From NCBI GenBank assembly GCA_018304465.1, contig JAGVWC010000010.1:192001-256000 (forward strand): 64,000 nucleotides of DNA, read 5' to 3'. This document shows, piece after piece, positions 50,674 through 64,000 of this stretch. How positions within the stretch are numbered: the first letter of the stretch is position 1; the number at the start of each line of letters is the position of its first letter. Position numbers and translations under genes: made by a program. The notes under the pieces are model-generated. The model did no database searches. It was not told the origin of the DNA and worked only from the letters and a program-made list of their open reading frames with translations. The DNA comes from Candidatus Iainarchaeum sp. (lineage in GTDB: Archaea > Iainarchaeota > Iainarchaeia > Iainarchaeales > JAGVWC01).

Positions 50674-52512
50674 ATGAAAAATGCGCTCGAATGGACTCTG
50701 ATCATCGGACTAATCGCAGTAAGCGGAACCATTCTGTTATTTCCATCCGCTAATTCCGAAGCAACGATTTCACCCACCCTGTTTCAACTGAACACTACCA
50801 CCGATCAAAACACCCTAACCACACTGGACACTTTCGGCACCAATATACGATTTGACATGTTGGTGACCGACCAATTTTTTTCGCCACTGTCCGGAGTACT
50901 CATTGGAATCATTCCCAGCTACAACCCCACCAAAATCGGATCCGTAATATCTACTCCCCAAGGAAACGCATCCTACACCGACACCCATGTTCCGCCCGGA
51001 GTTCACAAATACCGTTTGATTGGATCCAAAGTCGGATATCAGAACGGCTACATGGAAAAAAACATAGTGATTCCATCAGGACATCTAGTGAATGTAGAAG
51101 TTTTTGATTCAGCGGGGAATCCAGTTCCGGATGCTTTTTTAGTGGTGAATGGAGAAGAAAAAAAGCGAACCAATCCAAATGGAAAAGTTAACTTGAATTT
51201 TTTTTCGGGAACGTATGTGTTGCAAGCAAAAACAAATAACGGATATATCTGTGAATCCAAAACAATCACAATTACAACCCCACAATCCGTCCGGTTCTCT
51301 TGTCCGGTGGGAAACCTGGTTGTTCGAGTGTTTTCCCCCGATTACGCTCCAATCGCAAATGCATATATTCAACTTGATCAACAACCATCCCAACTCACCA
51401 ATGCCAGCGGAGCCCATTTTTTTAAAAACCAAGCATTTGGAAACCACCTCGTCACTATTTTTTTAAAAATCAAAGAAACTCCCGAAACCCAACCCAAAGA
51501 ATTTTTTACCCAAACAACAGTAAACCTTTCAGAGGATCTTGTGCTAAAAGAATTCCAACTCGCCCCCAATTCAATTCAAGTTTTGGATACTTCAACCGAA
51601 ATGTTGGTTCTATCCGTTGATTCGAATCAATCAAAAAGACTACCCAACGACATCTCCACTGAAAATGCAATAGTCATCAAAGGAAAAATGAACATCAACC
51701 AATCCCAAGAAACCCCCATAACAGATCCTCTGCACTCCGACACCTGCTACAAAAAGTATCTATTAACCGGAGAATGGCCCACCACTGAATGCTCCGCTAC
51801 CAACACAATTTGGATCGGAACCGATTCGATAACTCAAACCATCAACACAAACCCCTTCGCCTACACCTGCGGAGACCAAAAATGCAGTCAAAATTTGGGA
51901 GTTATTCTTACACAGTATATTGTTCCTCCACTAAAAGAATTTTTTACTGGTACAGATGGAGGAAGGTATTTTCGCATTTCCTATACTGAAAAAGGAAAGG
52001 GTCAAGATCTTGAAGCCTGTTTAAACAAATTGGGAATAGCGAAAGACGAAATTATTCAGCACATCAACAACAAGATTCTTATCCCCCATACCCCGATAGA
52101 GAAATACAATCAGCATATTGGGCAATATAGAGAGAATGGGTTAGATTGCAGTGTCTTCTATGAATCGGTTGCATTTAAAGAAAGCGGCGGTACAAAAGGT
52201 TGTGAAAAAAGTTGCGAACCGCCAGAAAAGTATATCCGAAATCCCCCAATAAGTTATCCGTCTTTTATTCCAACAGAGCATTTAGACGATTGGGTTGAAA
52301 GAATAATTAGACATAACAACGTCGAAAATGGGTGGCCTACATTAGATAGGTTTAAACCTTTTTCAGACATTGGAATAATTATCGTGGAAGGAGCAGGGGT
52401 AGCTGCGGGAGCACTAATACTATGGGAAGCTACAAAACCTGTTCGATGCTTACTTGCCGCTTTTTTAGCTCCTGAAACAATTGGAGGAAGTGTAGTATTA
52501 TGCGTAAGTTGA
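50674..52512 (+). CDS. Secreted protein with carboxypeptidase-regulatory-like beta domains and a variable C-terminal (toxin-like) region
   Basis: Signal peptide; repeated V.V.D..G.P...A.......T...G units; C-terminal GAGVAAGAL...APETIGGS. Confidence 0.7.
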   Translation: MKNALEWTLIIGLIAVSGTILLFPSANSEATISPTLFQLNTTTDQNTLTTLDTFGTNIRFDMLVTDQFFSPLSGVLIGIIPSYNPTKIGSVISTPQGNASYTDTHVPPGVHKYRLIGSKVGYQNGYMEKNIVIPSGHLVNVEVFDSAGNPVPDAFLVVNGEEKKRTNPNGKVNLNFFSGTYVLQAKTNNGYICESKTITITTPQSVRFSCPVGNLVVRVFSPDYAPIANAYIQLDQQPSQLTNASGAHFFKNQAFGNHLVTIFLKIKETPETQPKEFFTQTTVNLSEDLVLKEFQLAPNSIQVLDTSTEMLVLSVDSNQSKRLPNDISTENAIVIKGKMNINQSQETPITDPLHSDTCYKKYLLTGEWPTTECSATNTIWIGTDSITQTINTNPFAYTCGDQKCSQNLGVILTQYIVPPLKEFFTGTDGGRYFRISYTEKGKGQDLEACLNKLGIAKDEIIQHINNKILIPHTPIEKYNQHIGQYRENGLDCSVFYESVAFKESGGTKGCEKSCEPPEKYIRNPPISYPSFIPTEHLDDWVERIIRHNNVENGWPTLDRFKPFSDIGIIIVEGAGVAAGALILWEATKPVRCLLAAFLAPETIGGSVVLCVS

Positions 52513-52517
52513 CAAAC

Positions 52518-53042
52518 ATGGAAAAAAAGTTCGATGTCAGCTTAGTTCTGGCTAACACTAAAAATGCCAATAACCTAAAACTTCTGTATGAAATATTGTG
52601 TTTCTGTAAAGAAATCGGTGCAGTAACCCTTGAAATAGAGTTTGTGAACCCAGATATCTTTACGGGAAAAGATTTTGTTAATCCAGTTTTTTTCGATCGC
52701 CTAAAGGTGTGCGTTAGCCTGCCAGGAGAACGGGTTCGATACGAAAAACCAAAAAGAAAAGAGGAAATAGGCCATGAAAAATTGCATTATCTTAAAGCTA
52801 ATTTTGACTCTCTTTTTATTGAGTGGTATAAAGAAAATAGCCTAATGACTTTTAACGTATTTAATTTGCAATTATTTGACAAAAACGGATCCGTTGTTGC
52901 AGACTTTACCGACGATCAGCTTAGTATTCACATATATTCTTTGAGTAAACAAGAGTTAGAAAAAGTAAGAAAAATTGCGAAAAAATATTCCGTAGATAGT
53001 ACTACTGACACGGCTAAAACCTTAATAAAAAAATGGCACTAG
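52518..53042 (+). CDS. Hypothetical protein (immunity-like)
   Basis: AT-rich ORF starting 5 nt after the secreted gene. Confidence 0.6.
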   Translation: MEKKFDVSLVLANTKNANNLKLLYEILCFCKEIGAVTLEIEFVNPDIFTGKDFVNPVFFDRLKVCVSLPGERVRYEKPKRKEEIGHEKLHYLKANFDSLFIEWYKENSLMTFNVFNLQLFDKNGSVVADFTDDQLSIHIYSLSKQELEKVRKIAKKYSVDSTTDTAKTLIKKWH

Positions 53043-53069
53043 GGACTTCGCCCATATGACCCTAAGTAA

Positions 53070-53750
53070 GCGTGTGTTCCACCAAACCCGAATGCTCCAA
53101 ATGCGTATCCGTATAATGCATTTCATCGCAATTACCACAAGCATAATAAGGCTGACATTGGGGATCACAAGATGCAAAAAGGGATCGAATACGAATATTT
53201 TGCCGACGAAAATGAAGGCAGCATACGGTTTTTGTTTCAGGGCACAGGCAGACTTGACGCACTTGAAGTCGTGAAACGTATCGTAGGAAAAAAAAGTGCA
53301 GAAATTCCCGCAAACCAATACCTCGGAAAAGAATTCATATATGAAGGACAACGACTGGTGCTGTCGTTTGCAAAAAACGGTGTGAACATAAACATCAAAA
53401 GAGTTGGTGGCCAAGTATTTGGTGAAATGGATGGCCTCCTGCTAAAAGACAATACCGTCGTAATACTAGAATCAAAAACAGGCACCGTGGCCAAAATAGT
53501 GGAAGACTTGAGCACGCAGCTACCAAGAAACATTAATGCCATCAACAACCTTTCTCAAAAAACAACAACAGAAGCGCTTATCGCGATCCCAAAAGGCACA
53601 ACCGAAGAAATAAAAGCGCTTGCAATAAACAATTCCAATCTCAACGCGCTCATCAACCAAGGAAAAATACATTTCATTGAAATAACGCAGACAAGCGATG
53701 AACTGCTTGCAACTGCGAATACGGTAAAAGACCTTATAGGTGGCGGGTAG
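53070..53750 (+). CDS. PD-(D/E)XK nuclease-like cassette (first ATG 53172; frame open from 53070)
   Basis: GEMDGLLLKDNTVVILESKTG...TQL matches the E-x-D...E-x-K pattern. Confidence 0.65.
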   Translation, partial: ACVPPNPNAPNAYPYNAFHRNYHKHNKADIGDHKMQKGIEYEYFADENEGSIRFLFQGTGRLDALEVVKRIVGKKSAEIPANQYLGKEFIYEGQRLVLSFAKNGVNINIKRVGGQVFGEMDGLLLKDNTVVILESKTGTVAKIVEDLSTQLPRNINAINNLSQKTTTEALIAIPKGTTEEIKALAINNSNLNALINQGKIHFIEITQTSDELLATANTVKDLIGGG

Positions 53751-54455
53751 ATGAAGGACGATACGATTAGAGAAGAATACCTAAAACTAAATAAAGACCA
53801 TGAATCGTTAAAAGAGCAAAAAAGGCCCGGAAATGCGCATTTGGGGGGATTTTATGTACGATTAGATCCGAATCGAGGAACCTCTTTATCTGGCTCAGTA
53901 AGCGAGTTCGGTGTTTGCGATTTTAGTTATGAGGAAAGAAAATTTTTTTCAGAAGAAGATCGGCAAAAAAAAGTATCCAAATTAATTGAAACCTTCGGAT
54001 ACGCAATCAGTCTTATTTTTCTGAGTTTTGGAGAGAGTGATATCGTTATTTGGCTACAACTCCCACTTGGCAGAAAAGAAATCCAAGAAATCCTGGATTT
54101 TCTACCTTCGACAGGGACATTCAAAAAATACGAAACCCCAATCATACACACCTTGGCAAATGACGAGCAAGTACAAAAAGCACGCAACGATTTTTATCAA
54201 AAACTTTCTGAATGTGTCGACGGCCAGCAGACCGAACATTGGCGTTTTTCGAAAGACATCGAACAAGAAAAAAAAACCGCGTTTCAAATAACCATAAACG
54301 AAGTAAAAAACATTCAAATAGGCAAAACAACAGGACACAACATTACGCTGGAATTTATGAAAAACTGCTCTACTTTTAAAAAATACATTTTCCCCCTTGA
54401 AGAAAAAAGTTTCAAAAAAACAATTGAAAGGATTCGAAATGCGCAGGTAAAATAA
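53751..54455 (+). CDS. Hypothetical protein (immunity-like)
   Basis: Starts immediately after the nuclease stop codon. Confidence 0.6.
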   Translation: MKDDTIREEYLKLNKDHESLKEQKRPGNAHLGGFYVRLDPNRGTSLSGSVSEFGVCDFSYEERKFFSEEDRQKKVSKLIETFGYAISLIFLSFGESDIVIWLQLPLGRKEIQEILDFLPSTGTFKKYETPIIHTLANDEQVQKARNDFYQKLSECVDGQQTEHWRFSKDIEQEKKTAFQITINEVKNIQIGKTTGHNITLEFMKNCSTFKKYIFPLEEKSFKKTIERIRNAQVK

Positions 54456-54833: not shown

Positions 54834-55688
54834 TCACGGAAAAGAATTTGCATGAACTGACTTTGGAAATAAGTTGATTCCTTCGGTTCGCAGTTGTTCC
54901 GCCAAAATAGGATTCCGTGTAATAACCATTTTGATCGAGACGTTTTCCATGTAAAGCGAATAGACTTTTGCCATGTCGAACTGTTCCATTGATTTTGTTT
55001 TTTCAAACAACGCATTTAATCGTTGTTTAAACTCCGTTGGATAAAAAATTTGAGCCACATAATCCCCTTCAATCACCAAATCACCGTCCGCCGGATAAGT
55101 GACCTGATGAATGGATTGCTTGCCCATCTTTTGGGTAAACGTATTCCCAAACTGGTCCAACACCCCAGCACCATGATACAACCCATAATAGGGAACTTGA
55201 AAAATTTTTTTCACTTGCTCCAAATCGCTTGGATCCAAACCCACCGGAAGCCAAGGATGACCCAACAGGCAAACACGAGATTTTTTATCCGGATTAGGAA
55301 ATTGATCATTAAAGACCCAAATAACAAAACGAATTAACTCAACCATACTATGGAATTCCAAATTCAGCACCTCTTTTTGCAACCAATCGGAAGGCAAAGA
55401 ATAATTGGAATAGGATTGTAGACGCGCACTAAACGCCTTTACATTTAATATCCACTCAGCACTTAACGAAAATTTCGACCCGTTTTTGACAACGACCCGC
55501 TCACCCTCCAAACTATGAAGCATTTTATGAACCGCTTGGTAGGAAGCTGAAATGGCATATTCTTTTTTGATATCCGAAAATATTTCCTTCAAACTCAAAG
55601 GATGCCGAACGCTAAGTAAACTAATAATCGCGTCTTTTGTTGAAAGTGTTTTTTTCCCAAAACCTGGCAGAACAATCGAAAGAGCCAT
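54834..55688 (-). CDS. wHTH regulator, paralog 1
   Basis: STKDAIISLL...PLSLKEI...SYQAVHKML..L....VV......LSAEW. Confidence 0.75.
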   Translation of the reverse strand: MALSIVLPGFGKKTLSTKDAIISLLSVRHPLSLKEIFSDIKKEYAISASYQAVHKMLHSLEGERVVVKNGSKFSLSAEWILNVKAFSARLQSYSNYSLPSDWLQKEVLNLEFHSMVELIRFVIWVFNDQFPNPDKKSRVCLLGHPWLPVGLDPSDLEQVKKIFQVPYYGLYHGAGVLDQFGNTFTQKMGKQSIHQVTYPADGDLVIEGDYVAQIFYPTEFKQRLNALFEKTKSMEQFDMAKVYSLYMENVSIKMVITRNPILAEQLRTEGINLFPKSVHANSFP

Positions 55689-55782
55689 CCAAATCACTAC
55701 GTATAGAACATACAAAACATCGATAACCGGATTTATAAACATAACCAAGTAAAAAGTAGATAAAACTCAGATTCTGATTTAC

Positions 55783-56790
55783 GTGGCCAAAAAAACCGTA
55801 AAAGATGCCTATGAAAGCATCTTCAAAAAAAGCGTCAAAGCCAGCGGAATATCCGTCAAAGGACTTGATTTTAACCAAGAAGTCACCTTGGAAAAACTGA
55901 TTAACGCGCTTGGAACCAGCGGATTCCAAGCCACGCATTTAAGCCGCGCCATCGAAATCGTCAAAAAAATGCGCAAAGACAAAGTAACGATTTTCTTAGG
56001 ATATACCTCCAACCAAGTATCCAGCGGAAACCGCGACATCATCCGCTATCTGGTTCAACACAAACTCGTGGACTGCTTGGTCAGCACCGCCGGCGGAATC
56101 GAAGAAGACTTCATCAAAACCCACGCTCCGTTTTTCATTTCCGATTTTCGACTCGACGGCGCGAAACTACGCGAAAAAGGAATCAACCGCATCGGAAACC
56201 TGCTCGCACCCAACGAGCGCTACATCTGGTTCGAAAAATTCTTCCAACCGATCCTCCAAGAACTGCTTGACGAACAACTCAACACCGGACACATTTTTTC
56301 CCCCAGCGAAATCATCGACAAAATGGGAGAAAAAATCAACCACGAAGAATCAATTTATTACTGGGCCCACCAAAACAAAATCCCGGTTTTCTCTCCAGCA
56401 TTCATGGACGGAGCCATCGGCGACAACTGCTACTTTTTCAACTACAACAAACAAAAAAAATTATTCATCGACCAAATCGCAGACCATCACCGCCTGATCG
56501 AAAAAACACTCGACTCCAAAGAAACCGGACTCATCATACTAGGCGCCGGCCTCGTCAAACACACCCTGCTAAACGCCAACATGTACCGCGAAGGCGCCAA
56601 ATACACCGTCTACATGAACACCTCCAGCGAATACGACGGAAGCGACAGCGGCGCCGAACCCGAAGAAGCCAAAAGCTGGGGCAAAATCGCAGCAGACGCC
56701 AACACGGTAAAAGTAGTTGGGGACACGACAGTGTTGTTTCCCTTAGTGGTAACAGTTGCATTAAGGCACTTTCAAAAAGCAAAAAAATAG
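55783..56790 (+). CDS. dys: Deoxyhypusine synthase
   Basis: GFQATHL, FLGYTSN, TAGGIEED, INRIGN, YDGSDSGA.PEEA.SWGK. Confidence 0.95.
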   Translation: MAKKTVKDAYESIFKKSVKASGISVKGLDFNQEVTLEKLINALGTSGFQATHLSRAIEIVKKMRKDKVTIFLGYTSNQVSSGNRDIIRYLVQHKLVDCLVSTAGGIEEDFIKTHAPFFISDFRLDGAKLREKGINRIGNLLAPNERYIWFEKFFQPILQELLDEQLNTGHIFSPSEIIDKMGEKINHEESIYYWAHQNKIPVFSPAFMDGAIGDNCYFFNYNKQKKLFIDQIADHHRLIEKTLDSKETGLIILGAGLVKHTLLNANMYREGAKYTVYMNTSSEYDGSDSGAEPEEAKSWGKIAADANTVKVVGDTTVLFPLVVTVALRHFQKAKK

Positions 56791-56804
56791 TGTAGGATAG
56801 TTAT

Positions 56805-57497
56805 TCAAAAATCCAGTAAACCACGTATATCAGTTTTATTTTTGACTATTGGCCATTTTCTTTGTTCAGCAATTTCAGAAAGTTTTTTGTCGGGGTTCAC
56901 AGTAACTGGATGTCCCACATGTTCTAAAACAGGAAGATCTTGTGAGGTATCTCCAAACCCAAACGAAGATTCTATGTCAATATTATACTTTTTTATCAAA
57001 GCATAGAACAAAGTTTCTTTATTTTCACGAATTACTAGATTCGTTTTGACATTCCCCGAATAAACACCATCAACAATCTCGCATTCTGTCCCATATAAAT
57101 CATCAAAGCCCAAGTATTTCAATTGTTTTATTACTTCGATAGGGGAACCGCTCATTGCAAGGACCAAATAACCTTTTTGTTTCATTAGTTTTACAAGTTG
57201 TTTTGAGTGTTCAAAAATATTTTTTTTGTATATAGCCATGAATGCTGCCCCCAATTTTTCAACTTTTTGGTGATCGCATCCTTTTAACCCTCTCGCAAAC
57301 ACTTGCGGGAGTTCGGTTGCAACTTCAGCAGCACTTTTTGTTCCTTTAATATATTCTGATAAAAGAAGTTGTATTTTTTTATTGGATTCGGAGCCTATGC
57401 ACCCTTGTTGGTCCAAATACTTTGGAAATTCACAAATGATAAAACCTTTAACAAGTACACCATCAATGTCAAATATTGCTGCTTTTTGCGCATGCAT
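56805..57497 (-). CDS. HAD-IB (PSP-like) phosphatase
   Basis: FDIDGVL, MSGS, K, GFGDTSQD...VGHP..VNPD. Confidence 0.9.
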   Translation of the reverse strand: MHAQKAAIFDIDGVLVKGFIICEFPKYLDQQGCIGSESNKKIQLLLSEYIKGTKSAAEVATELPQVFARGLKGCDHQKVEKLGAAFMAIYKKNIFEHSKQLVKLMKQKGYLVLAMSGSPIEVIKQLKYLGFDDLYGTECEIVDGVYSGNVKTNLVIRENKETLFYALIKKYNIDIESSFGFGDTSQDLPVLEHVGHPVTVNPDKKLSEIAEQRKWPIVKNKTDIRGLLDF

Positions 57498-57522
57498 ACA
57501 AAAGTTCTCCTGTAAAATAATG

Positions 57523-58302
57523 TTAAAATATCTTGCCAGGATATTTATTTGCCAGAGAAACCATTTTTTTCAAGGTTTCAATACCTTTTGGTTCTTCAAT
57601 GAGTTTACCAACATGAATAGCGTCAGCCTTATGTTTAAACATAAGATCAGCATCTTCAGGCGTTAAAATGCCACTAGTTGGAATAATAAATAAATTCGTC
57701 TTTCTTGCCAATAATTCAACATGTGTTGCTGGCGGCCCAAGTTCGCTACCGGATCCACCAGCCATGATATATATTCGCATACCTAAATATTGGGCTGCTA
57801 AAGCGACAGATAAACTAATTTCGGGTTTTTCTCTTGGAATTGGAACGGCGCGTGCCAGCCAGTTAGCTGTTCGCATTGACCCCCGATCATCAAATACATA
57901 CGCAGTAGGAATTGGTTCAAGAGTATTAGGCGTAACAGCAACTGAGTTCATTACCAACACATCACGCAAGAAAAATGGATTTTCTGAGTTCAAAACAGAC
58001 ATCCAATAAATTGCGGTTTTCCCTTCGTGGCCATTTAAAAAACACACTGCACTATTAGTCGGATAGGTTACTGTAGAAAAGTTATAATCCTTTACAGCCA
58101 TATCTTGCACTATTTGTAATTTTTGTGGAGTGATAATGCTTCCGCCAAGCGCAATATGTTGAATACCCAAATCAGAGATCGCTTGAAAAATTTTTGAAAT
58201 TACTTCTACAGGAAGTTTGTCAGGATCTATTTGTGGGATCACTAGCGGGTGATCCTCTCGAAGAGAATAGATTTTTTTTTCTACTTTTCCAAGGCGTTCC
58301 AT
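57523..58302 (-). CDS. Geranylgeranylglyceryl-phosphate synthase (GGGPS/PcrB)-family homologue, active site divergent
   Basis: IDPDK, LGGS, MSVLNSENPF, PIPREKPEI, AAQYLGM, ADAI.VG. The YLEAGSG motif appears as IMAGGSG. Confidence 0.82.
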   Translation of the reverse strand: MERLGKVEKKIYSLREDHPLVIPQIDPDKLPVEVISKIFQAISDLGIQHIALGGSIITPQKLQIVQDMAVKDYNFSTVTYPTNSAVCFLNGHEGKTAIYWMSVLNSENPFFLRDVLVMNSVAVTPNTLEPIPTAYVFDDRGSMRTANWLARAVPIPREKPEISLSVALAAQYLGMRIYIMAGGSGSELGPPATHVELLARKTNLFIIPTSGILTPEDADLMFKHKADAIHVGKLIEEPKGIETLKKMVSLANKYPGKIF

Positions 58303-58305
58303 TGT

Positions 58306-59454
58306 TTACTCAGCCCCTTCAAATAATAGCGCAAGATGACCTTTGGATACATCGACTTTAGGCTTTTTTAAGATAATCTCTTTCCCATACACTCTAGAAC
58401 ATAGACCAGATAAAAATCCGCCGATCATTAAGAAGTCAATTTCTTTATAAAATTTAGTCCAAGGAAAATAATTAATGATAACTTTTAATTTTTCTCCGCT
58501 TGAAAGAACTAAAACTTCGCCCCAGCCCAAAGCCGAAAGTAACTCCATTACTTCAAGCAATCTTCTTTTATCAATTTCAGGAAATAACTCTTGACCTATC
58601 CGAAACGCACAATCAAAAAGGATTTTTTTCATTTTTTCATTTTTCATTCCTTTTTCTAGCAGGTACATCCCGCTGACTTCCATTAAGAAAAAACGCTCCT
58701 TTTGTTTGTATACAATGATGCCTTCAGAATATGAAAACAATTTGGCGTTAAGATATGATTCAAAGGATTTTTTATATTGAATGTCCACTTCAGTATTAAA
58801 ACTTCGATAAGTTGAAGCGTCCTCTAATAGATCATCTACTTGAGTTTCACTATATACTTGTTCTTTGAATTGCTTTGAAAGAACATCGACAGGAGCACAG
58901 GTCACCTTACAAAACTGATCAGACCCTTTGAACAAACTATCATACATATGACCTTCAATTTTTATGTCTTGCAGTATCCACGCGATAATTCCTGCTGCAC
59001 CGGCAGTAGCAAGAAAAAAATCATACCCTAACTTTCTACACACAACAAAATTTTTCAGTTCATATTTCACAGTCTTATTTTTTACATCAGTCTCTTGCGA
59101 GATATTGCTCGCATAGGTGCCTTCGACAAATTTACTCGCAATCATCACCCAATCTTTTACTGCCTCGCCAGGGTGATCTTTAATATTTTCAAACCGCCCA
59201 TTCAATGCAAAGCTATACCCAAACCGTTTGCCGATGGAATATAATGTTTGCTCACCTTCAGCCCCAAACTCAGTAACTAATTGCTTTTCAAGAGCAACAA
59301 AAAAACTTTCAGGGAGCAGAAGTTGTCGCAAGTTTACAGTGGTTTTTCCAGAGATTTTAAAATCTACAAAGCCAGGCCTATCAAAAATCAATGCCCGGGG
59401 GATTACAAAGCGTTTAACGTACAATCTAACAACGCTATCTTTTACATCCACCAT
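58306..59454 (-). CDS. Tandem V4R-like domain protein
   Basis: RQLLLP..FF...LYSIGKRFG; GAAG...G...C; second copy ERFFL..., LSALGWG, GGFLSG. Confidence 0.7.
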   Translation of the reverse strand: MVDVKDSVVRLYVKRFVIPRALIFDRPGFVDFKISGKTTVNLRQLLLPESFFVALEKQLVTEFGAEGEQTLYSIGKRFGYSFALNGRFENIKDHPGEAVKDWVMIASKFVEGTYASNISQETDVKNKTVKYELKNFVVCRKLGYDFFLATAGAAGIIAWILQDIKIEGHMYDSLFKGSDQFCKVTCAPVDVLSKQFKEQVYSETQVDDLLEDASTYRSFNTEVDIQYKKSFESYLNAKLFSYSEGIIVYKQKERFFLMEVSGMYLLEKGMKNEKMKKILFDCAFRIGQELFPEIDKRRLLEVMELLSALGWGEVLVLSSGEKLKVIINYFPWTKFYKEIDFLMIGGFLSGLCSRVYGKEIILKKPKVDVSKGHLALLFEGAE

Positions 59455-59456
59455 GT

Positions 59457-60203
59457 TTATCCGCCTGCTTCGATAACAATGCCTTTTGCAGTAATATTAT
59501 ATGTTCGTGGACCGCCACGAATATCAGTTTTTCGCATTTTTCGAACTTCCAAGTTTCTATTCAAACTATCCCCAATCGAAACATGTTTGAGTAAAACTAC
59601 ACCGTCACATAAAAATTCACTAATTGTGTCCCGGCTCAAAAAATTTGTGGATTCAGGTAACTCAGAAATGATTATTGATGTTGCTTTTTGATTTTTTAGT
59701 GCTTCAAGCATATCCACTATTGCTTTTCGAGTAGCAACTTCAGGCCCAAGCTGGAAAGAGAATTGGCTTTTTTGCATTCCCATTTTTTCTAAGATCTCAA
59801 TATATGCAATCGTTTCTGCATAAATCCCATATGTCGAAATAGAATCCAAGACAATTCTATCCGGTTTAAACTCTTGGATTAATGCCTTAATTTCTTGTAA
59901 TACCGCAGAGAAAATCATTTTGTTTGGAGTGTAAGTTACAACTTTCAATTTTTTTTCTTTTTCAAGTTTAAGCAAATCCCACCCCAATTCGTTTGATTGA
60001 TCAATAATATCTTCTCTAATCTGTTCAAAACTAATCAAAAGCCCACGTTCATTATACTGCTTCACTCCATTTACAAGGTATTGAGTAGCGAAGATGGTCT
60101 TTCCAGATCCTGTTAACCCTGACAGCAATACCAGATTCCCTTTTGGAAATCCCCCATTAATGAGTTCATCAAAACCAGATATCCCTGTTTTAACTCGTAA
60201 CAT
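59457..60203 (-). CDS. KaiC/RAD55-like single-domain ATPase
   Basis: RVKTGISGFDELINGG.P, GLTGSGKT, RIVLDS, EFLCDGVV.L, RKMR.T. Confidence 0.92.
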   Translation of the reverse strand: MLRVKTGISGFDELINGGFPKGNLVLLSGLTGSGKTIFATQYLVNGVKQYNERGLLISFEQIREDIIDQSNELGWDLLKLEKEKKLKVVTYTPNKMIFSAVLQEIKALIQEFKPDRIVLDSISTYGIYAETIAYIEILEKMGMQKSQFSFQLGPEVATRKAIVDMLEALKNQKATSIIISELPESTNFLSRDTISEFLCDGVVLLKHVSIGDSLNRNLEVRKMRKTDIRGGPRTYNITAKGIVIEAGG

Positions 60204-60295
60204 TCAACATCAGACTCGGCCGCGCTTTAAGATGTATTTAATGGCTTTAAACACCTATTTAAACAATGCTGTTAATCAAAAATCAGTTTATCACG

Positions 60296-61054
60296 TTAGA
60301 GCGCCAAATCATCTATCTTAATTGTAATTCCTTTTGGCGACATCTCGTACCGTAGCGAGCCTTTTTCGTGATCAGTGTACCGCATTTTTCGGATTCGAAC
60401 ACTGCGAAACACCGAAGAACCGACACCCAAATAACTTAACACAATCACGCCATCCGCAATAAACTCGGACACGCCATCCGCACTGAGTCGCGCGGCTTCT
60501 TCAAACAATTCCGACGTCAACATCGTGGTAACTCCGTAGGCTCGAAGCGACGACAACAACCGATACAAAATCTGTTTCGCGATCAATTGTTCGGTTCGCG
60601 GAATCGGAGAAACCGTTTCGGCAATCTGAACCATTGAAAACGCATCGTGTTCCGCCAAACCCCCGACAATCATGGCATCCGTCAAGGTAGACATGGAATC
60701 CACCACAATGCGTTTGGGTTTGAATTCTTTTAGAATCAGATCAAGACGTTTGAGAAAATTATCCCCGCCGGTAATATCATAAAAAACAACCTTGATCAAG
60801 CCCCGCTTGATCAAACTTTCCAAATCCCAACCAAAACCGAGACCTTGCTTGATCAATTCGGATTCTGTTTGCTCCGTAGAAATGTATACTCCGCGCTCAT
60901 TGTTTTGCGCGCCGTGGACCAAAAATTGCATGCAAAAAGTCGATTTTCCGGTTCCGGCGCCGCCTGAAATCAAAACCATGTTGCCTTCGGGAAGACCCCC
61001 TTGCAACGCTTTATCCAATCCTTCGATTCCAGTTTTGGTTCGTGAAACAGCCAC
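60296..61054 (-). CDS. KaiC/RAD55-like single-domain ATPase
   Basis: KTGIEGLD...GGLP, GGAGTGKS, RIVVDS, EFIADGVI.L, RKMR.T.H. GTG start with AGGTG SD. Confidence 0.92.
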   Translation of the reverse strand: MAVSRTKTGIEGLDKALQGGLPEGNMVLISGGAGTGKSTFCMQFLVHGAQNNERGVYISTEQTESELIKQGLGFGWDLESLIKRGLIKVVFYDITGGDNFLKRLDLILKEFKPKRIVVDSMSTLTDAMIVGGLAEHDAFSMVQIAETVSPIPRTEQLIAKQILYRLLSSLRAYGVTTMLTSELFEEAARLSADGVSEFIADGVIVLSYLGVGSSVFRSVRIRKMRYTDHEKGSLRYEMSPKGITIKIDDLAL

Positions 61055-61157
61055 GAAAACACACCTAATAGCCCATTGGCTGACAAGATAACACCTTCGA
61101 GGTTTAAAAACCTTATTGGTAGGCGGATTTGAAGAAAAAGAAAGAATTACTAGCATG

Positions 61158-62003
61158 TCAGGAATGGGCGTAAAGAGAATTTATCTGGTCAAACGCCATC
61201 TTTGCCATTTGCGGATTTCGATAAACCCGGACTTTAATGGAGACACTAAGTGGCTTTTTAGCTAAAAATCGGGCGTAATGCAAAAAAACATCCAACAAGT
61301 TATTCGTCTTATCATATAGTGATTCTAGCCAGCGTCTGGAGTCCGAAGAAAAATCCACTTCCCAGTAATATGAACCAATTACTCCGAAATCTTTTTCAAA
61401 ATTTCCGGAAGGATTGATCCGCACGGAAAAACCTGCATCAGAATACATTTTTTGCGCCCAACGATTAAAGTTAGTGTCTCGCGTAATCACCACGCAAATC
61501 TGTCCAGGAGTTGCATCAGACATTTTTTTTAACAAAGAAAAATCAGAAAAACGAAACGACAAAGGAAACCACGCATTTCGAATCAACGCCATTGTCTTGT
61601 CGCCTTTTCGAACTGATTTTCCAAGTGTGACGAAAATTTTTGCCATTCCAACGCAAAACTCACTTATATCAGAGAATTCAAGAATCGTATCAGAGCCAAA
61701 AGAGATGGGAACACGCCTTGATTTAGAGCGTCGGAACTCCGAGTCTAACTCGCGTGAAAAATTTTTCAAGCTCAAAACCCACTGGGGATTCAACTCGAAT
61801 TTTTTTTGTTTTGAAACCAGAACATCTTCCGCTTCAAGAGAAACCAACATTTTGTGCACGGCTTGGTACGACACGCGATCTACTAGCGTCCAATCCATTT
61901 TTTCAAAAACGCCTTTTGCAGAAAGCGGGCCCTGCTGGCCAAGAATCAAAATAATTTGATCACGTGTGGAAGACTTTCCTAAAAGAATTGGCAATACCCC
62001 CAT
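61158..62003 (-). CDS. wHTH regulator, paralog 2
   Basis: STRDQII..L...PLSAK...VSYQAVHKML..L...LNPQW. Confidence 0.75.
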   Translation of the reverse strand: MGVLPILLGKSSTRDQIILILGQQGPLSAKGVFEKMDWTLVDRVSYQAVHKMLVSLEAEDVLVSKQKKFELNPQWVLSLKNFSRELDSEFRRSKSRRVPISFGSDTILEFSDISEFCVGMAKIFVTLGKSVRKGDKTMALIRNAWFPLSFRFSDFSLLKKMSDATPGQICVVITRDTNFNRWAQKMYSDAGFSVRINPSGNFEKDFGVIGSYYWEVDFSSDSRRWLESLYDKTNNLLDVFLHYARFLAKKPLSVSIKVRVYRNPQMAKMAFDQINSLYAHS

Positions 62004-62056
62004 AGATAACCCACTACATAACAAGTATTTTAGAACTAACGGATAAAAGAGTACCT

Positions 62057-62908
62057 ATGCAAGAATTCTGGTCCATTCCGGCGGCTCACGGCAACACCAC
62101 TGTCAAAGACTGGACCATCCGGATTCTCACCCAAGAATGGCCGCTGTCGTTAAAACAAATTACGGAGCGCGTCCAACAGCAATCCGGAAAAACCGTTTCT
62201 CAACAAGCCGTGTTCAAAACGCTTCAAGATTTGGTTCGACAAAAAGTCGTTGAAAAACACGACAAGAGTTACGCATTAAACAAAGAATGGATCACGCACC
62301 TCGCGAAATCCGTTCAAGATCTCCAGACCACGTATGAAAACCACGCTGGCCAATTGCCCGCACTCGGAAAACTTGACACCAAAACCGTAATCGAATTTCA
62401 TGATCCAAGCGCCGTCGCGGTCACCGTCGCCCAGATTCTGGCCTCGCGCGTACTCACCCAAGGAAAACCGGAACCGTTTTATGGAATCAAACGACACGGC
62501 TTGTGGCCGCTTCGATTCAGCTTTTCCGACTTCGAACTCTTAAAAGAAATGACCAAATCCATTCCGTGTTATTGCGCCGTAATCGGAAATGACCCCTTTG
62601 ACCGATGGGTGGTTGAACAATACCTTAAAGGCGGATTCAAAAAATCCAAAACCGGCGCCAAAGCCGAATTCAAAGAATGGGACATCATGGCCCACGGAGA
62701 ATACGTACTGACCATTCAATACGCCAAAGAAACCGAACAAGCCATCGAATACCTGTTCAAACAAATCAACAACCTAAGCGAACTATTCGAAAAATTCAGC
62801 CAAGAAGAACTGTCCAAATTCAAATTCCAAGCAACGTTAACAATCGAACGAAACCCGGACCTCGCACGGCTCATCAAAGAAAAATGCATGAAAATATTGG
62901 AAGAGTAA
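62057..62908 (+). CDS. wHTH regulator, paralog 3
   Basis: TVKDW.I.IL..EWPLSLKQI...VSQQAVFKTL...LNKEW; shares W.PL.F.FSDF.LLK.M with paralog 2. Confidence 0.75.
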   Translation: MQEFWSIPAAHGNTTVKDWTIRILTQEWPLSLKQITERVQQQSGKTVSQQAVFKTLQDLVRQKVVEKHDKSYALNKEWITHLAKSVQDLQTTYENHAGQLPALGKLDTKTVIEFHDPSAVAVTVAQILASRVLTQGKPEPFYGIKRHGLWPLRFSFSDFELLKEMTKSIPCYCAVIGNDPFDRWVVEQYLKGGFKKSKTGAKAEFKEWDIMAHGEYVLTIQYAKETEQAIEYLFKQINNLSELFEKFSQEELSKFKFQATLTIERNPDLARLIKEKCMKILEE

Positions 62909-62975: not shown

Positions 62976-64000
62976 CTATTGGTTTTGGTATAGGTCTTTG
63001 CAGGATTGGACTGCTTCTTGGGTACTGAGTTCGTCACAGAGCGCAGTGTTTTGAGCGTTGATAATGATTGCGATGATGCATAAATCAGGATTTTCGAGTT
63101 GTTTGCATATGGCGGGGTCCATCCGGGTAATCGCAATTTTTTTCATGCAACGTTCTTTTTCGGTTGTGGCTTTGCATGCTTCCAGGTCGTCTTTGGCGAC
63201 TGCAACGTCCGAGAAACAAGTCTCTTCTTGATTGAGGCCTTTGCATAAGTTGGCGTCTTTTTTTGCGACGGCTACGCGCGAGATGCAAATATCACGAAAC
63301 ATTGCGAGTTCGGGATTTTTCGGGAGGGTTTCGCATATTTTTTCATCTTTTGCTTGTTCTGCTTGTGCAGTCGTGGTTTGTATGGTGGACCACAGGCTGT
63401 CCAACGTTGTTTGGTATCCTTTTTGGGCGGTATCCAAGCACACTTGTTTTTGAGTCGGGGTCGTAAAATTTTCGCATATCGTGGCGTCTTTTGTTTTTTC
63501 GACTACCGCAAACATGCAATTGATGCGAAAGCCGTCTAGCCGAGCCTTGCATAGGTCGTCTTGGCAGGCGGTCGGATGTTTTTCCAAAGTGACTTCTTTG
63601 CATCCTTCGAGTGTTCCAGTCTGACCGCTGACGATCGCAATGCATTGAAGTTTATAGACTTCTGATATGATTTTGTTGCAGATTTCGATATTTTGCGTTC
63701 TGTTCGCATCTTCCAATAACGCATCGGTAACCCCGCTGCTACAATACGAACCAGACCCAAGTTTTTCGCAGACGCTATAATCCCGAAGGGTAACTGCCAC
63801 TCCTTGAATGCAAGTTTGTATACCGCTTTGAGAGGTTAAGGCATTACACATCTTCAAATCGCCTCGTTTCCCTCCGATCTCAGCCAAACACTGGTCTTTT
63901 CGAATCGAAACAAAAAAAGAATCCGTGAGCAAATCGCAGATTTGCATGTTGTCTGCTTCTACGGCAACGTTTGTAATGCAAATGGACCGATTAAGCTCTT
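62976..64000 (-). CDS. Cys-rich repeat surface protein (5' partial)
   Basis: Repeated C...VA....D...C units; frame stays open to the window edge. Confidence 0.8.
   Translation of the reverse strand, partial: ELNRSICITNVAVEADNMQICDLLTDSFFVSIRKDQCLAEIGGKRGDLKMCNALTSQSGIQTCIQGVAVTLRDYSVCEKLGSGSYCSSGVTDALLEDANRTQNIEICNKIISEVYKLQCIAIVSGQTGTLEGCKEVTLEKHPTACQDDLCKARLDGFRINCMFAVVEKTKDATICENFTTPTQKQVCLDTAQKGYQTTLDSLWSTIQTTTAQAEQAKDEKICETLPKNPELAMFRDICISRVAVAKKDANLCKGLNQEETCFSDVAVAKDDLEACKATTEKERCMKKIAITRMDPAICKQLENPDLCIIAIIINAQNTALCDELSTQEAVQSCKDLYQNQ

Follow-up and report, generated by a model that had tools for sequence, protein, structure and literature searches.

The 64,000-nucleotide stretch of a Candidatus Iainarchaeum sp. 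contig analysed here (the window) carries, at positions 56805 to 60203, a block of four genes encoding a KaiC-like ATPase, a tandem V4R-fold protein, a paralogue of the archaeal lipid enzyme GGGPS and a HAD-superfamily phosphatase. These four genes are a real conserved unit. We put at about one in two (0.5) the probability that they form a mobile accessory cassette of DPANN archaea by which a non-canonical acceptor is prenylated and then dephosphorylated, and whose KaiC and V4R proteins bind or sense the resulting lipid. The source organism is a small groundwater archaeon with a genome of 1.25 Mb that is 92% complete (G000 hereafter).

For the cassette we infer the following catalysis, acceptor, ligand and coupling of KaiC to V4R. 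The GGGPS-family barrel would ionise a prenyl diphosphate as GGGPS does, and would probably prenylate a phosphorylated acceptor other than sn-glycerol-1-phosphate (G1P), or else bind G1P very differently; the acceptor would not be read through the usual Tyr/Glu pair. The HAD phosphatase would then strip the phosphate from the prenylated product, and a GGR-family flavoprotein would saturate the chain in those lineages that have one, so that the end product would be a prenyl or phytanyl compound without its phosphate. The tandem V4R-fold protein may bind the hydrophobic substrate or product and couple to the KaiC-like ATPase, with TrmB-like regulators as the likely transcriptional output.

Archaeal membrane-lipid synthesis is committed, and its stereochemistry set, at the step that GGGPS catalyses, and departures from G1P alkylation within its fold are, to our knowledge, rare, MoeO5 being one. 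Because the clade described here appears to keep the donor chemistry, to have a rebuilt acceptor pocket and to be constantly accompanied by a phosphatase, it is a direct candidate source of new isoprenoid chemistry in the poorly understood DPANN archaea, and the cassette hints at a pathway for isoprenoid lipids that has not been described before and that brings its own sensor or handler. With a KaiC-like ATPase in fixed pairing with a putative hydrophobic-ligand-binding protein, the specific input of one archaeal KaiC "hub" may here become identifiable. The cassette's foreign base composition and a phylogeny that crosses phyla would point to an accessory trait maintained by selection, perhaps one connected with the way in which small-genome archaea handle or display their lipids.

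Gene order of the cassette across archaeal genomes

The block consists of the following genes:

56805..57497, minus strand: HAD-IB phosphatase, 230 amino acids (aa); TIGR01490, 113.6 bits against a cut-off of 98.3
57523..58302, minus strand: GGGPS-family TIM-barrel prenyltransferase paralogue (the GGGPS-like protein), 259 aa; PF01884, 64.7 bits
58306..59454, minus strand: tandem V4R-fold protein, 382 aa; assigned from its predicted structure
59457..60203, minus strand: KaiC-like ATPase 1 (KaiC1), 248 aa; PF06745, 190 bits; Walker A GLTGSGKT; within the low-GC block

An earlier reading made from the sequence only had described four co-oriented genes with gaps of 2, 3 and 25 nucleotides (nt), and both the gaps and the common minus strand are exact in the list of open reading frames (ORFs). 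Its coordinates hold for the four genes themselves; the unit probably extends upstream past 60203 to include a second KaiC-like gene (KaiC2) and a gene for a TrmB-like regulator on the same strand.

A pattern scan of the genome collection returned 21 other loci, ten of them in genomes also found in a search of the phylum. Their record titles name Candidatus Iainarchaeum (4), Micrarchaeota or Micrarchaeia (6), Nanohalarchaeota (2), Altiarchaeota (1), and "uncultured archaeon" or "archaeon" (8). The conserved order in these 21 genomes is KaiC, tandem V4R, GGGPS-like, in some cases a GGR-like gene, and HAD. Upstream DNA is present in 19 loci, and in 18 of these the V4R gene immediately precedes the GGGPS-like gene, the exception (L046) having an intervening FAD/GGR_cat-like gene; a KaiC gene lies directly 5′ of the V4R gene in 18 of 19, the exception (L047) having a GGR-like gene in that place and its KaiC downstream on the opposite strand. 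A HAD-superfamily gene follows the GGGPS-like gene in every one of the 19 loci whose DNA continues that far, L039 and L048 being cut off before this point. These HAD genes are of at least three kinds, and L047 has a non-orthologous HAD_2 type, a replacement which argues that phosphatase activity itself is what the cassette needs.

A GGR-family flavoprotein of 346–349 aa is encoded between the GGGPS-like and HAD genes in L037, L038, L041 and L049, and L039 has one before its contig ends. GGR-like genes also lie beside the cassette in L043, L046 and L047, and overall they are found inside or beside it in 8 of the 21 loci. Two of these flavoproteins, from L023 and L024, were scanned and score 141 bits to TIGR02032, against 158.8. 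Within the phylum, the GGGPS-like subfamily is present in 11 of 215 genomes, G000 included, and was not found in three genomes of G000's own family (82–85% complete).

The sequence-only reading had staked its operon on the gene order occurring in some other genome, and the 21 loci bear this out. Chance juxtaposition was also considered as an origin of the block, and is excluded by the same conserved order.

The GGGPS-like protein and the lipid genes of its genome

Membership of the GGGPS-like protein in the PF01884 superfamily is clear from its score, the gathering threshold being 23.9 bits, and it falls under every NCBIfam cut-off for GGGPS (TIGR01769, 96.8 against 161.55; NF003198, 145.8 against 247; NF003202, 91.5 against 353). 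The closest solved relative is the GGGPS of M. thermautotrophicus (MtGGGPS; 4mm1, E = 1e-24). In a residue-by-residue alignment to 4mm1, FYLEAGSGA reads IYIMAGGSGS and IVGGGIRS reads IPTSGILT, so that the motif substitutions noticed earlier are real; the DPDK, GGS and MSxLNSxNP motifs described as kept are likewise present in this alignment, the last as MSVLNSENP.

The subfamily comprises about 90 sequence clusters. In the database search, matches P0001–P0092 share at least 44% identity with the query, followed by a sharp drop to ordinary GGGPS sequences at no more than 34% identity and 113 bits. An alignment of the subfamily only (n = 51 sequences) contains 22 invariant columns. Residue roles were taken from the review PMC9385802 and were mapped onto an alignment of 89 subfamily and 29 canonical sequences. 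On this mapping, the Mg/diphosphate Asp D26, equivalent to the essential D25 of MtGGGPS, is present in 89 of 89 members, and S55 (S54 of MtGGGPS) in 80, the remaining 9 having Thr. The phosphate loop GSG is kept (G183 and S184 in 89/89, G185 in 82/89), G211 is found in all 89, and the first conserved Tyr of the GGGPS triad is present as Y135, also in 89/89. With respect to the standard phosphate-binding motif, loop 6 keeps GSG, the GG of loop 7 corresponds to S210-G211, and loop 8 has G232 in 83/89 with a variable N/T position. W148 aligns with W141 of 4mm1, which we take to be the aromatic anchor of the hexamer. Such an anchor is described, with no residue number, in PMC7888582.

The acceptor side reads otherwise. 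The strand-6 Tyr-x-Glu of YLEAGSG is replaced by I179 (86/89), Met and A181 (81/89; Gly in 8), and VGGG by P-T-S-G (87, 86, 89 and 89 of 89 members, respectively), which turns the Gly-Gly of beta-alpha-7 into Thr-Ser and GGG into TSG. PMC9385802 states that a strictly conserved Tyr/Tyr/Glu set governs G1P stereospecificity and catalysis, with the Glu polarising the acceptor hydroxyl. The review numbers the MtGGGPS triad Y134/Y178/E180, while a count along the 4mm1 chain gives 130, 172 and 174 (D25, S54 and V86 agree); because of this mismatch, motifs are cited here in place of triad residue numbers. Residues gained by the subfamily as invariant or near-invariant are P23, Q24, Y80, Y99, W100, F137, D138, R140, H194, P208, T209, S210 and H230. 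In addition, a four-residue insertion follows strand 3, in the region aligned to the chain-length limiter V86 of MtGGGPS.

The earlier description of this homologue as degenerate does not survive these results. The invariant columns, the intact Mg/diphosphate site and the new invariant polar residues at the active site make a changed enzyme a better fit than a decayed one, and the signature suggests a constrained protein with its donor site intact and its acceptor site rebuilt. One alternative is a pseudoenzyme receptor, in which the barrel transfers no prenyl group, binds a prenyl phosphate or ether lipid and, with V4R, reports lipid status to KaiC. This alternative draws on the loss of Tyr-x-Glu, important for catalysis and stereospecificity in the account given by the review, and on the fact that a sensor-fold protein and a KaiC ATPase constantly accompany the barrel. 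It accords poorly with the Mg/diphosphate Asp and phosphate loop retained across 89 sequences, with the new invariant Asp, Arg and His at active-site positions, and with an obligatory phosphatase partner that was once replaced by a non-orthologous protein; the GGR-like reductases inserted in some lineages also meet the needs of a pathway rather than those of a receptor. We consider a pseudoenzyme unlikely. Of the two options that the sequence-only reading had offered, an enzyme that together with the phosphatase makes a prenyl compound read by V4R and KaiC fits better.

A canonical GGGPS is encoded on another contig of the genome (G000:C6; 145.8 bits to PF01884; motifs ILESGGG and VAGGVRS) and shares 28% identity with the GGGPS-like protein. 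Canonical copies are likewise present in all five of the other cassette genomes tested (134–188 bits). The paralogue as the genome's only GGGPS, a circumstance that had been named as counting against the initial proposal, is excluded by the copy elsewhere. The lipid genes of G000 comprise this canonical GGGPS, one UbiA, CarS, two polyprenyl synthases and three GGR-family genes, so the premise that the archaeon, like many DPANN, lacks ether-lipid synthesis fails here. No match to Fe-ADH_2, the G1P dehydrogenase family, was detected in G000 (at its 92% completeness) or in three relatives of its family; the family was found in 15 of 40 relatives.

The GGGPS-like protein could instead be a second true GGGPS isozyme, which would make prenylglyceryl phosphate from G1P (or glycerol-3-phosphate) by means of substitute residues, perhaps with another chain length, and feed a monoalkyl-glycerol branch after dephosphorylation, as with Bacillus PcrB. 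Its PF01884 membership, the retained GSG and Mg site, the insertion at the region aligned to V86, and phosphatase and GGR partners suited to a glycerol-ether product all point in this direction. We nevertheless judge an isozyme improbable, since at least 86 of 89 members have other residues at the positions that, in the review, read the glycerol hydroxyls, the Gly-Gly of beta-alpha-7 is now Thr-Ser, and the protein scores under all NCBIfam GGGPS cut-offs.

Relative to group II archaeal GGGPS (4mm1), the GGGPS-like protein has the same PcrB-family TIM barrel, Mg/diphosphate Asp, GGS, GSG loop and Trp at the position of W141; it differs in lacking the Tyr-x-Glu of the G1P site, in having TSG for GGG, the four-residue insertion and its own Q24, Y80, W100, D138, R140, H194 and H230, and in being an extra paralogue in every genome tested (G000 and 5/5 others). 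Bacillus PcrB, of the heptaprenylglyceryl-phosphate pathway, is another case of a GGGPS-family product outside the bulk membrane-lipid route, and that product is later dephosphorylated. PcrB differs in keeping the G1P pocket (PMC9385802) and in having no KaiC or V4R partners. MoeO5 of the moenomycin pathway, described in that review as a GGGPS-like barrel alkylating 3-phosphoglycerate, is a precedent for prenyl-diphosphate chemistry on a different phosphorylated acceptor, but no closer sequence relation to it is detectable (it is not among the PDB matches at E ≤ 0.001), and its genomic context differs.

The tandem V4R protein and the neighbouring KaiC

No Pfam or NCBIfam profile matches the 382-aa protein at E ≤ 0.01, and the V4R profile PF02830 does not match it at E ≤ 10; only XylR_N does, at E = 0.13. 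A 59-row alignment was the basis of an AlphaFold2 model with a predicted local distance difference test score (pLDDT) of 92.9. In this model, residues 8–205 superpose on the full phenol-sensor domains of PoxR, MopR and DmpR (Z 11.8–12.8, about 175 residues aligned) and residues 234–382 on the V4R protein MJ1460 (Z 8.7), while Foldseek returned E = 1.8e-4 for the V4R/XylR_N fold. As predicted, the N-terminal half is a complete XylR_N+V4R-type sensor domain and the C-terminal half a second V4R-like domain. The label "tandem V4R" given from the sequence thus stands at the level of fold for both halves and not at the level of Pfam or NCBIfam sequence profiles.

Further structural matches include Bet3/TRAPPC3, BcsD and H-NOX, and palmitate-bound Bet3/TRAPPC3 chains are among them. 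Among 59 family sequences, C139 and C182 each occur in 46 and C186 in 38; this partly conserved three-Cys cluster recalls the Cys cluster of V4R sensors treated in PMC5847659. In sensors of the PoxR/MopR type such a cluster is the Zn site. The two halves appear to share the fold of PoxR/MopR/DmpR, MJ1460 and Bet3/TRAPPC3 (Z up to 12.8 and 8.7), but the protein differs from these sensors in joining two domains in a stand-alone chain that has no DNA-binding or AAA+ output domain and no Pfam-level similarity. The family contains 97 clusters, none with a precomputed Pfam domain; three carry the JGI name "predicted hydrocarbon binding protein", and the ESM Atlas gave leads only, to clusters that in part carry PF02830. 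The database copy of the product is a 272-aa form (P0122, 71% of the ORF). The start that yields 382 aa is likely correct, because all orthologues are 375–389 aa long.

A profile search of the 215 phylum genomes recovered 29 tandem-V4R copies in 26 genomes, eleven of cassette type and 18 others (L016–L021 and L054–L065). Thirteen of these 18 adjoin genes for UbiA-type prenyltransferases, GGR-like or GGR_cat flavoproteins and/or S-adenosylmethionine (SAM)-methyltransferases, in arrangements such as KaiC-UbiA-V4R-GGR (L019) and KaiC-V4R-UbiA-GGR (L059). L055, L057 and L058 encode proteins of 634–639 aa in which an N-terminal membrane region is fused to a SAM-methyltransferase domain; the N-terminal part has no Pfam match, and the genes for these fusions are convergent with KaiC-V4R pairs and are followed by a GGR_cat flavoprotein gene. 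A KaiC gene adjoins 13 of the 14 distant V4R copies with enough DNA (the exception is L062). Taken together, the tallies indicate that KaiC and tandem V4R are the constant core and that the neighbouring prenyl-lipid enzymes are exchangeable. The connection of V4R to lipids made in the sequence-only reading is strengthened by these loci, in which the V4R-fold family is tied to prenyl-lipid genes independently of the GGGPS-like gene (13/18).

The same constancy would also suit a lipid-handling machine, in which KaiC and tandem V4R are no signalling pair and act as an ATP-driven chaperone or extractor that ferries hydrophobic polyprenyl compounds, whether substrate or product, from the membrane or a host to soluble enzymes or back. 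Lipids occupy a cavity of the V4R/Bet3 fold according to PMC10933270, and palmitate-bound Bet3/TRAPPC3 chains are among the matches. We give this alternative a small chance: no membrane-anchoring part is seen in the KaiC or V4R protein, and the TrmB-like regulators adjoining many cassettes suit regulation.

KaiC1 and KaiC2 are both KaiC-like ATPases, with Walker A and B motifs that can be read in the translations (GLTGSGKT and RIVLD in KaiC1; GGAGTGKS and RIVVD in KaiC2), and share 37% identity. Neither is a circadian double-domain KaiC, being single-domain proteins of 248 and 286 aa with an NF006799 score of 144 against 408. KaiC1-type genes lie directly 5′ of the V4R gene in L030, L031, L032, L035 and L045, and the KaiC2 type takes this place in other loci; in most loci of the same phylum the gene directly 5′ of tandem V4R is of this type, at 49–62% identity. 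L031 and L032 also have two KaiC genes. The genome as a whole (G000) encodes ten KaiC-like and four TrmB-like paralogues.

Archaeal KaiC-like ATPases were reportedly proposed as signalling hubs by Makarova, Galperin and Koonin in 2017. The cassette is similar in that a single-domain KaiC adjoins small input-type proteins, and an ordinary single V4R gene stands beside KaiC in L014 and L018. It differs from the described hubs in its link to a GGGPS paralogue and a HAD phosphatase, which occurs in no text searched. A literature search that did not take in the 2017 paper, its neighbourhood lists or any supplements found no description of the paralogue or of the cassette, and the consulted part of PMC6431249 mentions only two classical GGGPS groups. 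An archaeal cassette pairing a GGGPS paralogue and a HAD phosphatase with KaiC-V4R thus appears undescribed. As a separate observation, an ordinary single V4R-domain gene is present on the source contig 3 kb beyond the window end (C15:258977-259144), and a homologue of it lies directly 5′ of the cassette KaiC in L014/L040.

The HAD protein has the DIDG nucleophile motif (FDIDGVL, residues 9–15) and qualifies as a HAD-IB phosphatase. HAD-IB includes phosphoserine phosphatases, and the NCBIfam scan gave weak SerB-model matches, so one could propose a protein phosphatase that resets an autophosphorylated KaiC, with the GGGPS-like protein serving only as input. The loci make this very improbable. 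The HAD gene always follows the GGGPS-like gene and not KaiC, a GGR-like gene intervenes between the two in 5 loci, and HAD is absent from all 18 distant KaiC-V4R loci, which have no GGGPS-like gene.

A bolder version of the proposal is a self-contained lipid-signal system, in which enzyme and phosphatase would make a new prenyl ether or other prenylated molecule, the tandem-V4R receptor would drive a KaiC switch and TrmB-type regulators, and the whole would move between DPANN phyla. If true, it would constitute an archaeal isoprenoid-based signalling or host-interaction module, a prospect to which we attach a low probability.

Base composition, phylogeny and surroundings of the block

The AT-richness of the block relative to its flanks, visible in the sequence, is real and extreme. 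GC content over 56805-60203 is 0.363 against a genome mean of 0.479 (standard deviation 0.028 over 3.4-kb windows), and all 2398 such windows across the genome are richer in GC. GC at third codon positions is 0.26–0.32 in the four block genes and 0.48–0.59 in KaiC2, the neighbouring deoxyhypusine synthase gene and TrmB-like paralogue 2; KaiC2 as a whole is host-like (0.458). The low-GC stretch runs from the HAD stop codon to the 92-nt gap between KaiC1 and KaiC2. In the 19 other loci compared (L048 and L050 contain only part of the V4R and GGGPS-like block), the GC content of this block is lower than that of the rest of the locus by at least 0.05 in 10 and by less than 0.05 in 6, and is not lower in 3.

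A midpoint-rooted FastTree of concatenated V4R and GGGPS-like sequences (20 taxa, read without support values) places G000 as sister to L030 in a clade that includes L031, L032, L035 and L045, none of which is among the hits of the phylum search. Same-phylum loci occupy at least three separate places in the tree. Together, base composition and tree argue for transfer of the four-gene block (KaiC1 type, V4R, GGGPS-like and HAD), and suggest that it was inserted downstream of a TrmB-like-KaiC2 pair that was already resident. Both block borders carry a direct repeat of 14 nt, identical at 13 of 14 positions (56800-56813, GTTATTCAAAAATC; 60271-60284, GTTAATCAAAAATC). Since repeats of such length are expected by chance in AT-rich DNA, it is a lead only, an insertion scar or chance, and 24 short repeat families of similar kind occur within the 4 kb. 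No tRNA was found in 40000-64000.

Several points weigh against a mobile cassette that makes and senses a prenyl lipid. The Glu considered important in the review and one of two strictly conserved Tyr residues are gone, so activity may have been lost, and the protein sequence itself names no acceptor. Longer or fused forms of the GGGPS-like protein are absent at E ≤ 1e-20, which is weak evidence. The coupling of KaiC to V4R is suggested by gene adjacency, and in five of the 18 distant loci no lipid-related gene adjoins the V4R copy (L020, L060, L061, L062 and L064). With regard to mobility, assignment of the clade loci to other phyla follows from their absence among the phylum-search hits, and lower GC in many hosts could partly be a property of these genes instead of a mark of repeated transfer.

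The neighbouring features are as follows:

60204..60295, minus strand: intergenic 92 nt between KaiC1 and KaiC2; right edge of the low-GC block
60296..61156, minus strand: KaiC-like ATPase 2 (KaiC2), 286 aa; PF06745, 185 bits; Walker A GGAGTGKS
61158..62024, minus strand: TrmB-like winged-helix regulator, 288 aa; directly 5′ of KaiC2 on the same strand
62057..62908, plus strand: TrmB-like regulator paralogue 2; divergent from the unit; 28% identity to the 61158-62024 protein
55783-56790, plus strand: deoxyhypusine synthase; PF01916, 368 bits; GC 0.472, host-like
54834..55748, minus strand: TrmB-like regulator paralogue 3; downstream, past the convergent deoxyhypusine synthase gene; 29% identity to the 61158-62024 protein

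The unit probably begins with the TrmB-like gene at 61158-62024. Between the KaiC genes, the 92 intergenic nt contain a TTTAAATA box about 45 nt 5′ of the KaiC1 ATG, which may be a promoter element, and one copy of the 14-nt direct repeat. At the other end, the HAD stop codon is followed by an oligo-T run, and 14 nt separate it from the stop codon of the convergent deoxyhypusine synthase gene.

The 288-aa protein has no Pfam or NCBIfam match. Foldseek matches its AlphaFold2 model (pLDDT 82) best to full-length chains of TrmBL2 (E = 6.6e-9), with TM-scores of 0.35–0.39 and a high root-mean-square deviation; TrmB-family regulators combine a winged helix-turn-helix, a coiled coil and a PLD-like C-domain. 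On the basis of this model, the protein and its paralogues are called TrmB-like regulators; the 288-aa protein resembles TrmB/TrmBL2 in this structural match and differs in sharing about 10% sequence identity and in having no Pfam TrmB match. Homologues lie directly 5′ of KaiC in the loci of G020 (L015/L033) and G090 (L022/L036), and homologues of TrmB-like paralogue 2 adjoin the cassette in those of G025 (L014/L040) and G142 (L026/L041).

Elsewhere in the window, three unannotated ORFs of 180, 192 and 234 aa (52500-54455, plus strand) lie in another lower-GC stretch (0.34–0.42). Encoded at 62976-64000 on the minus strand, by a gene that continues to C15:256133, is a protein of 385 aa that is rich in Cys, with many repeated segments that contain Cys and an N-terminus resembling that of a lipoprotein (LFVGCTS). 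Near-identical DNA to 56805-62024 occurs in groundwater and soil metagenome runs, seven of which contain at least half of the sampled words, and four are flagged as possible sources.

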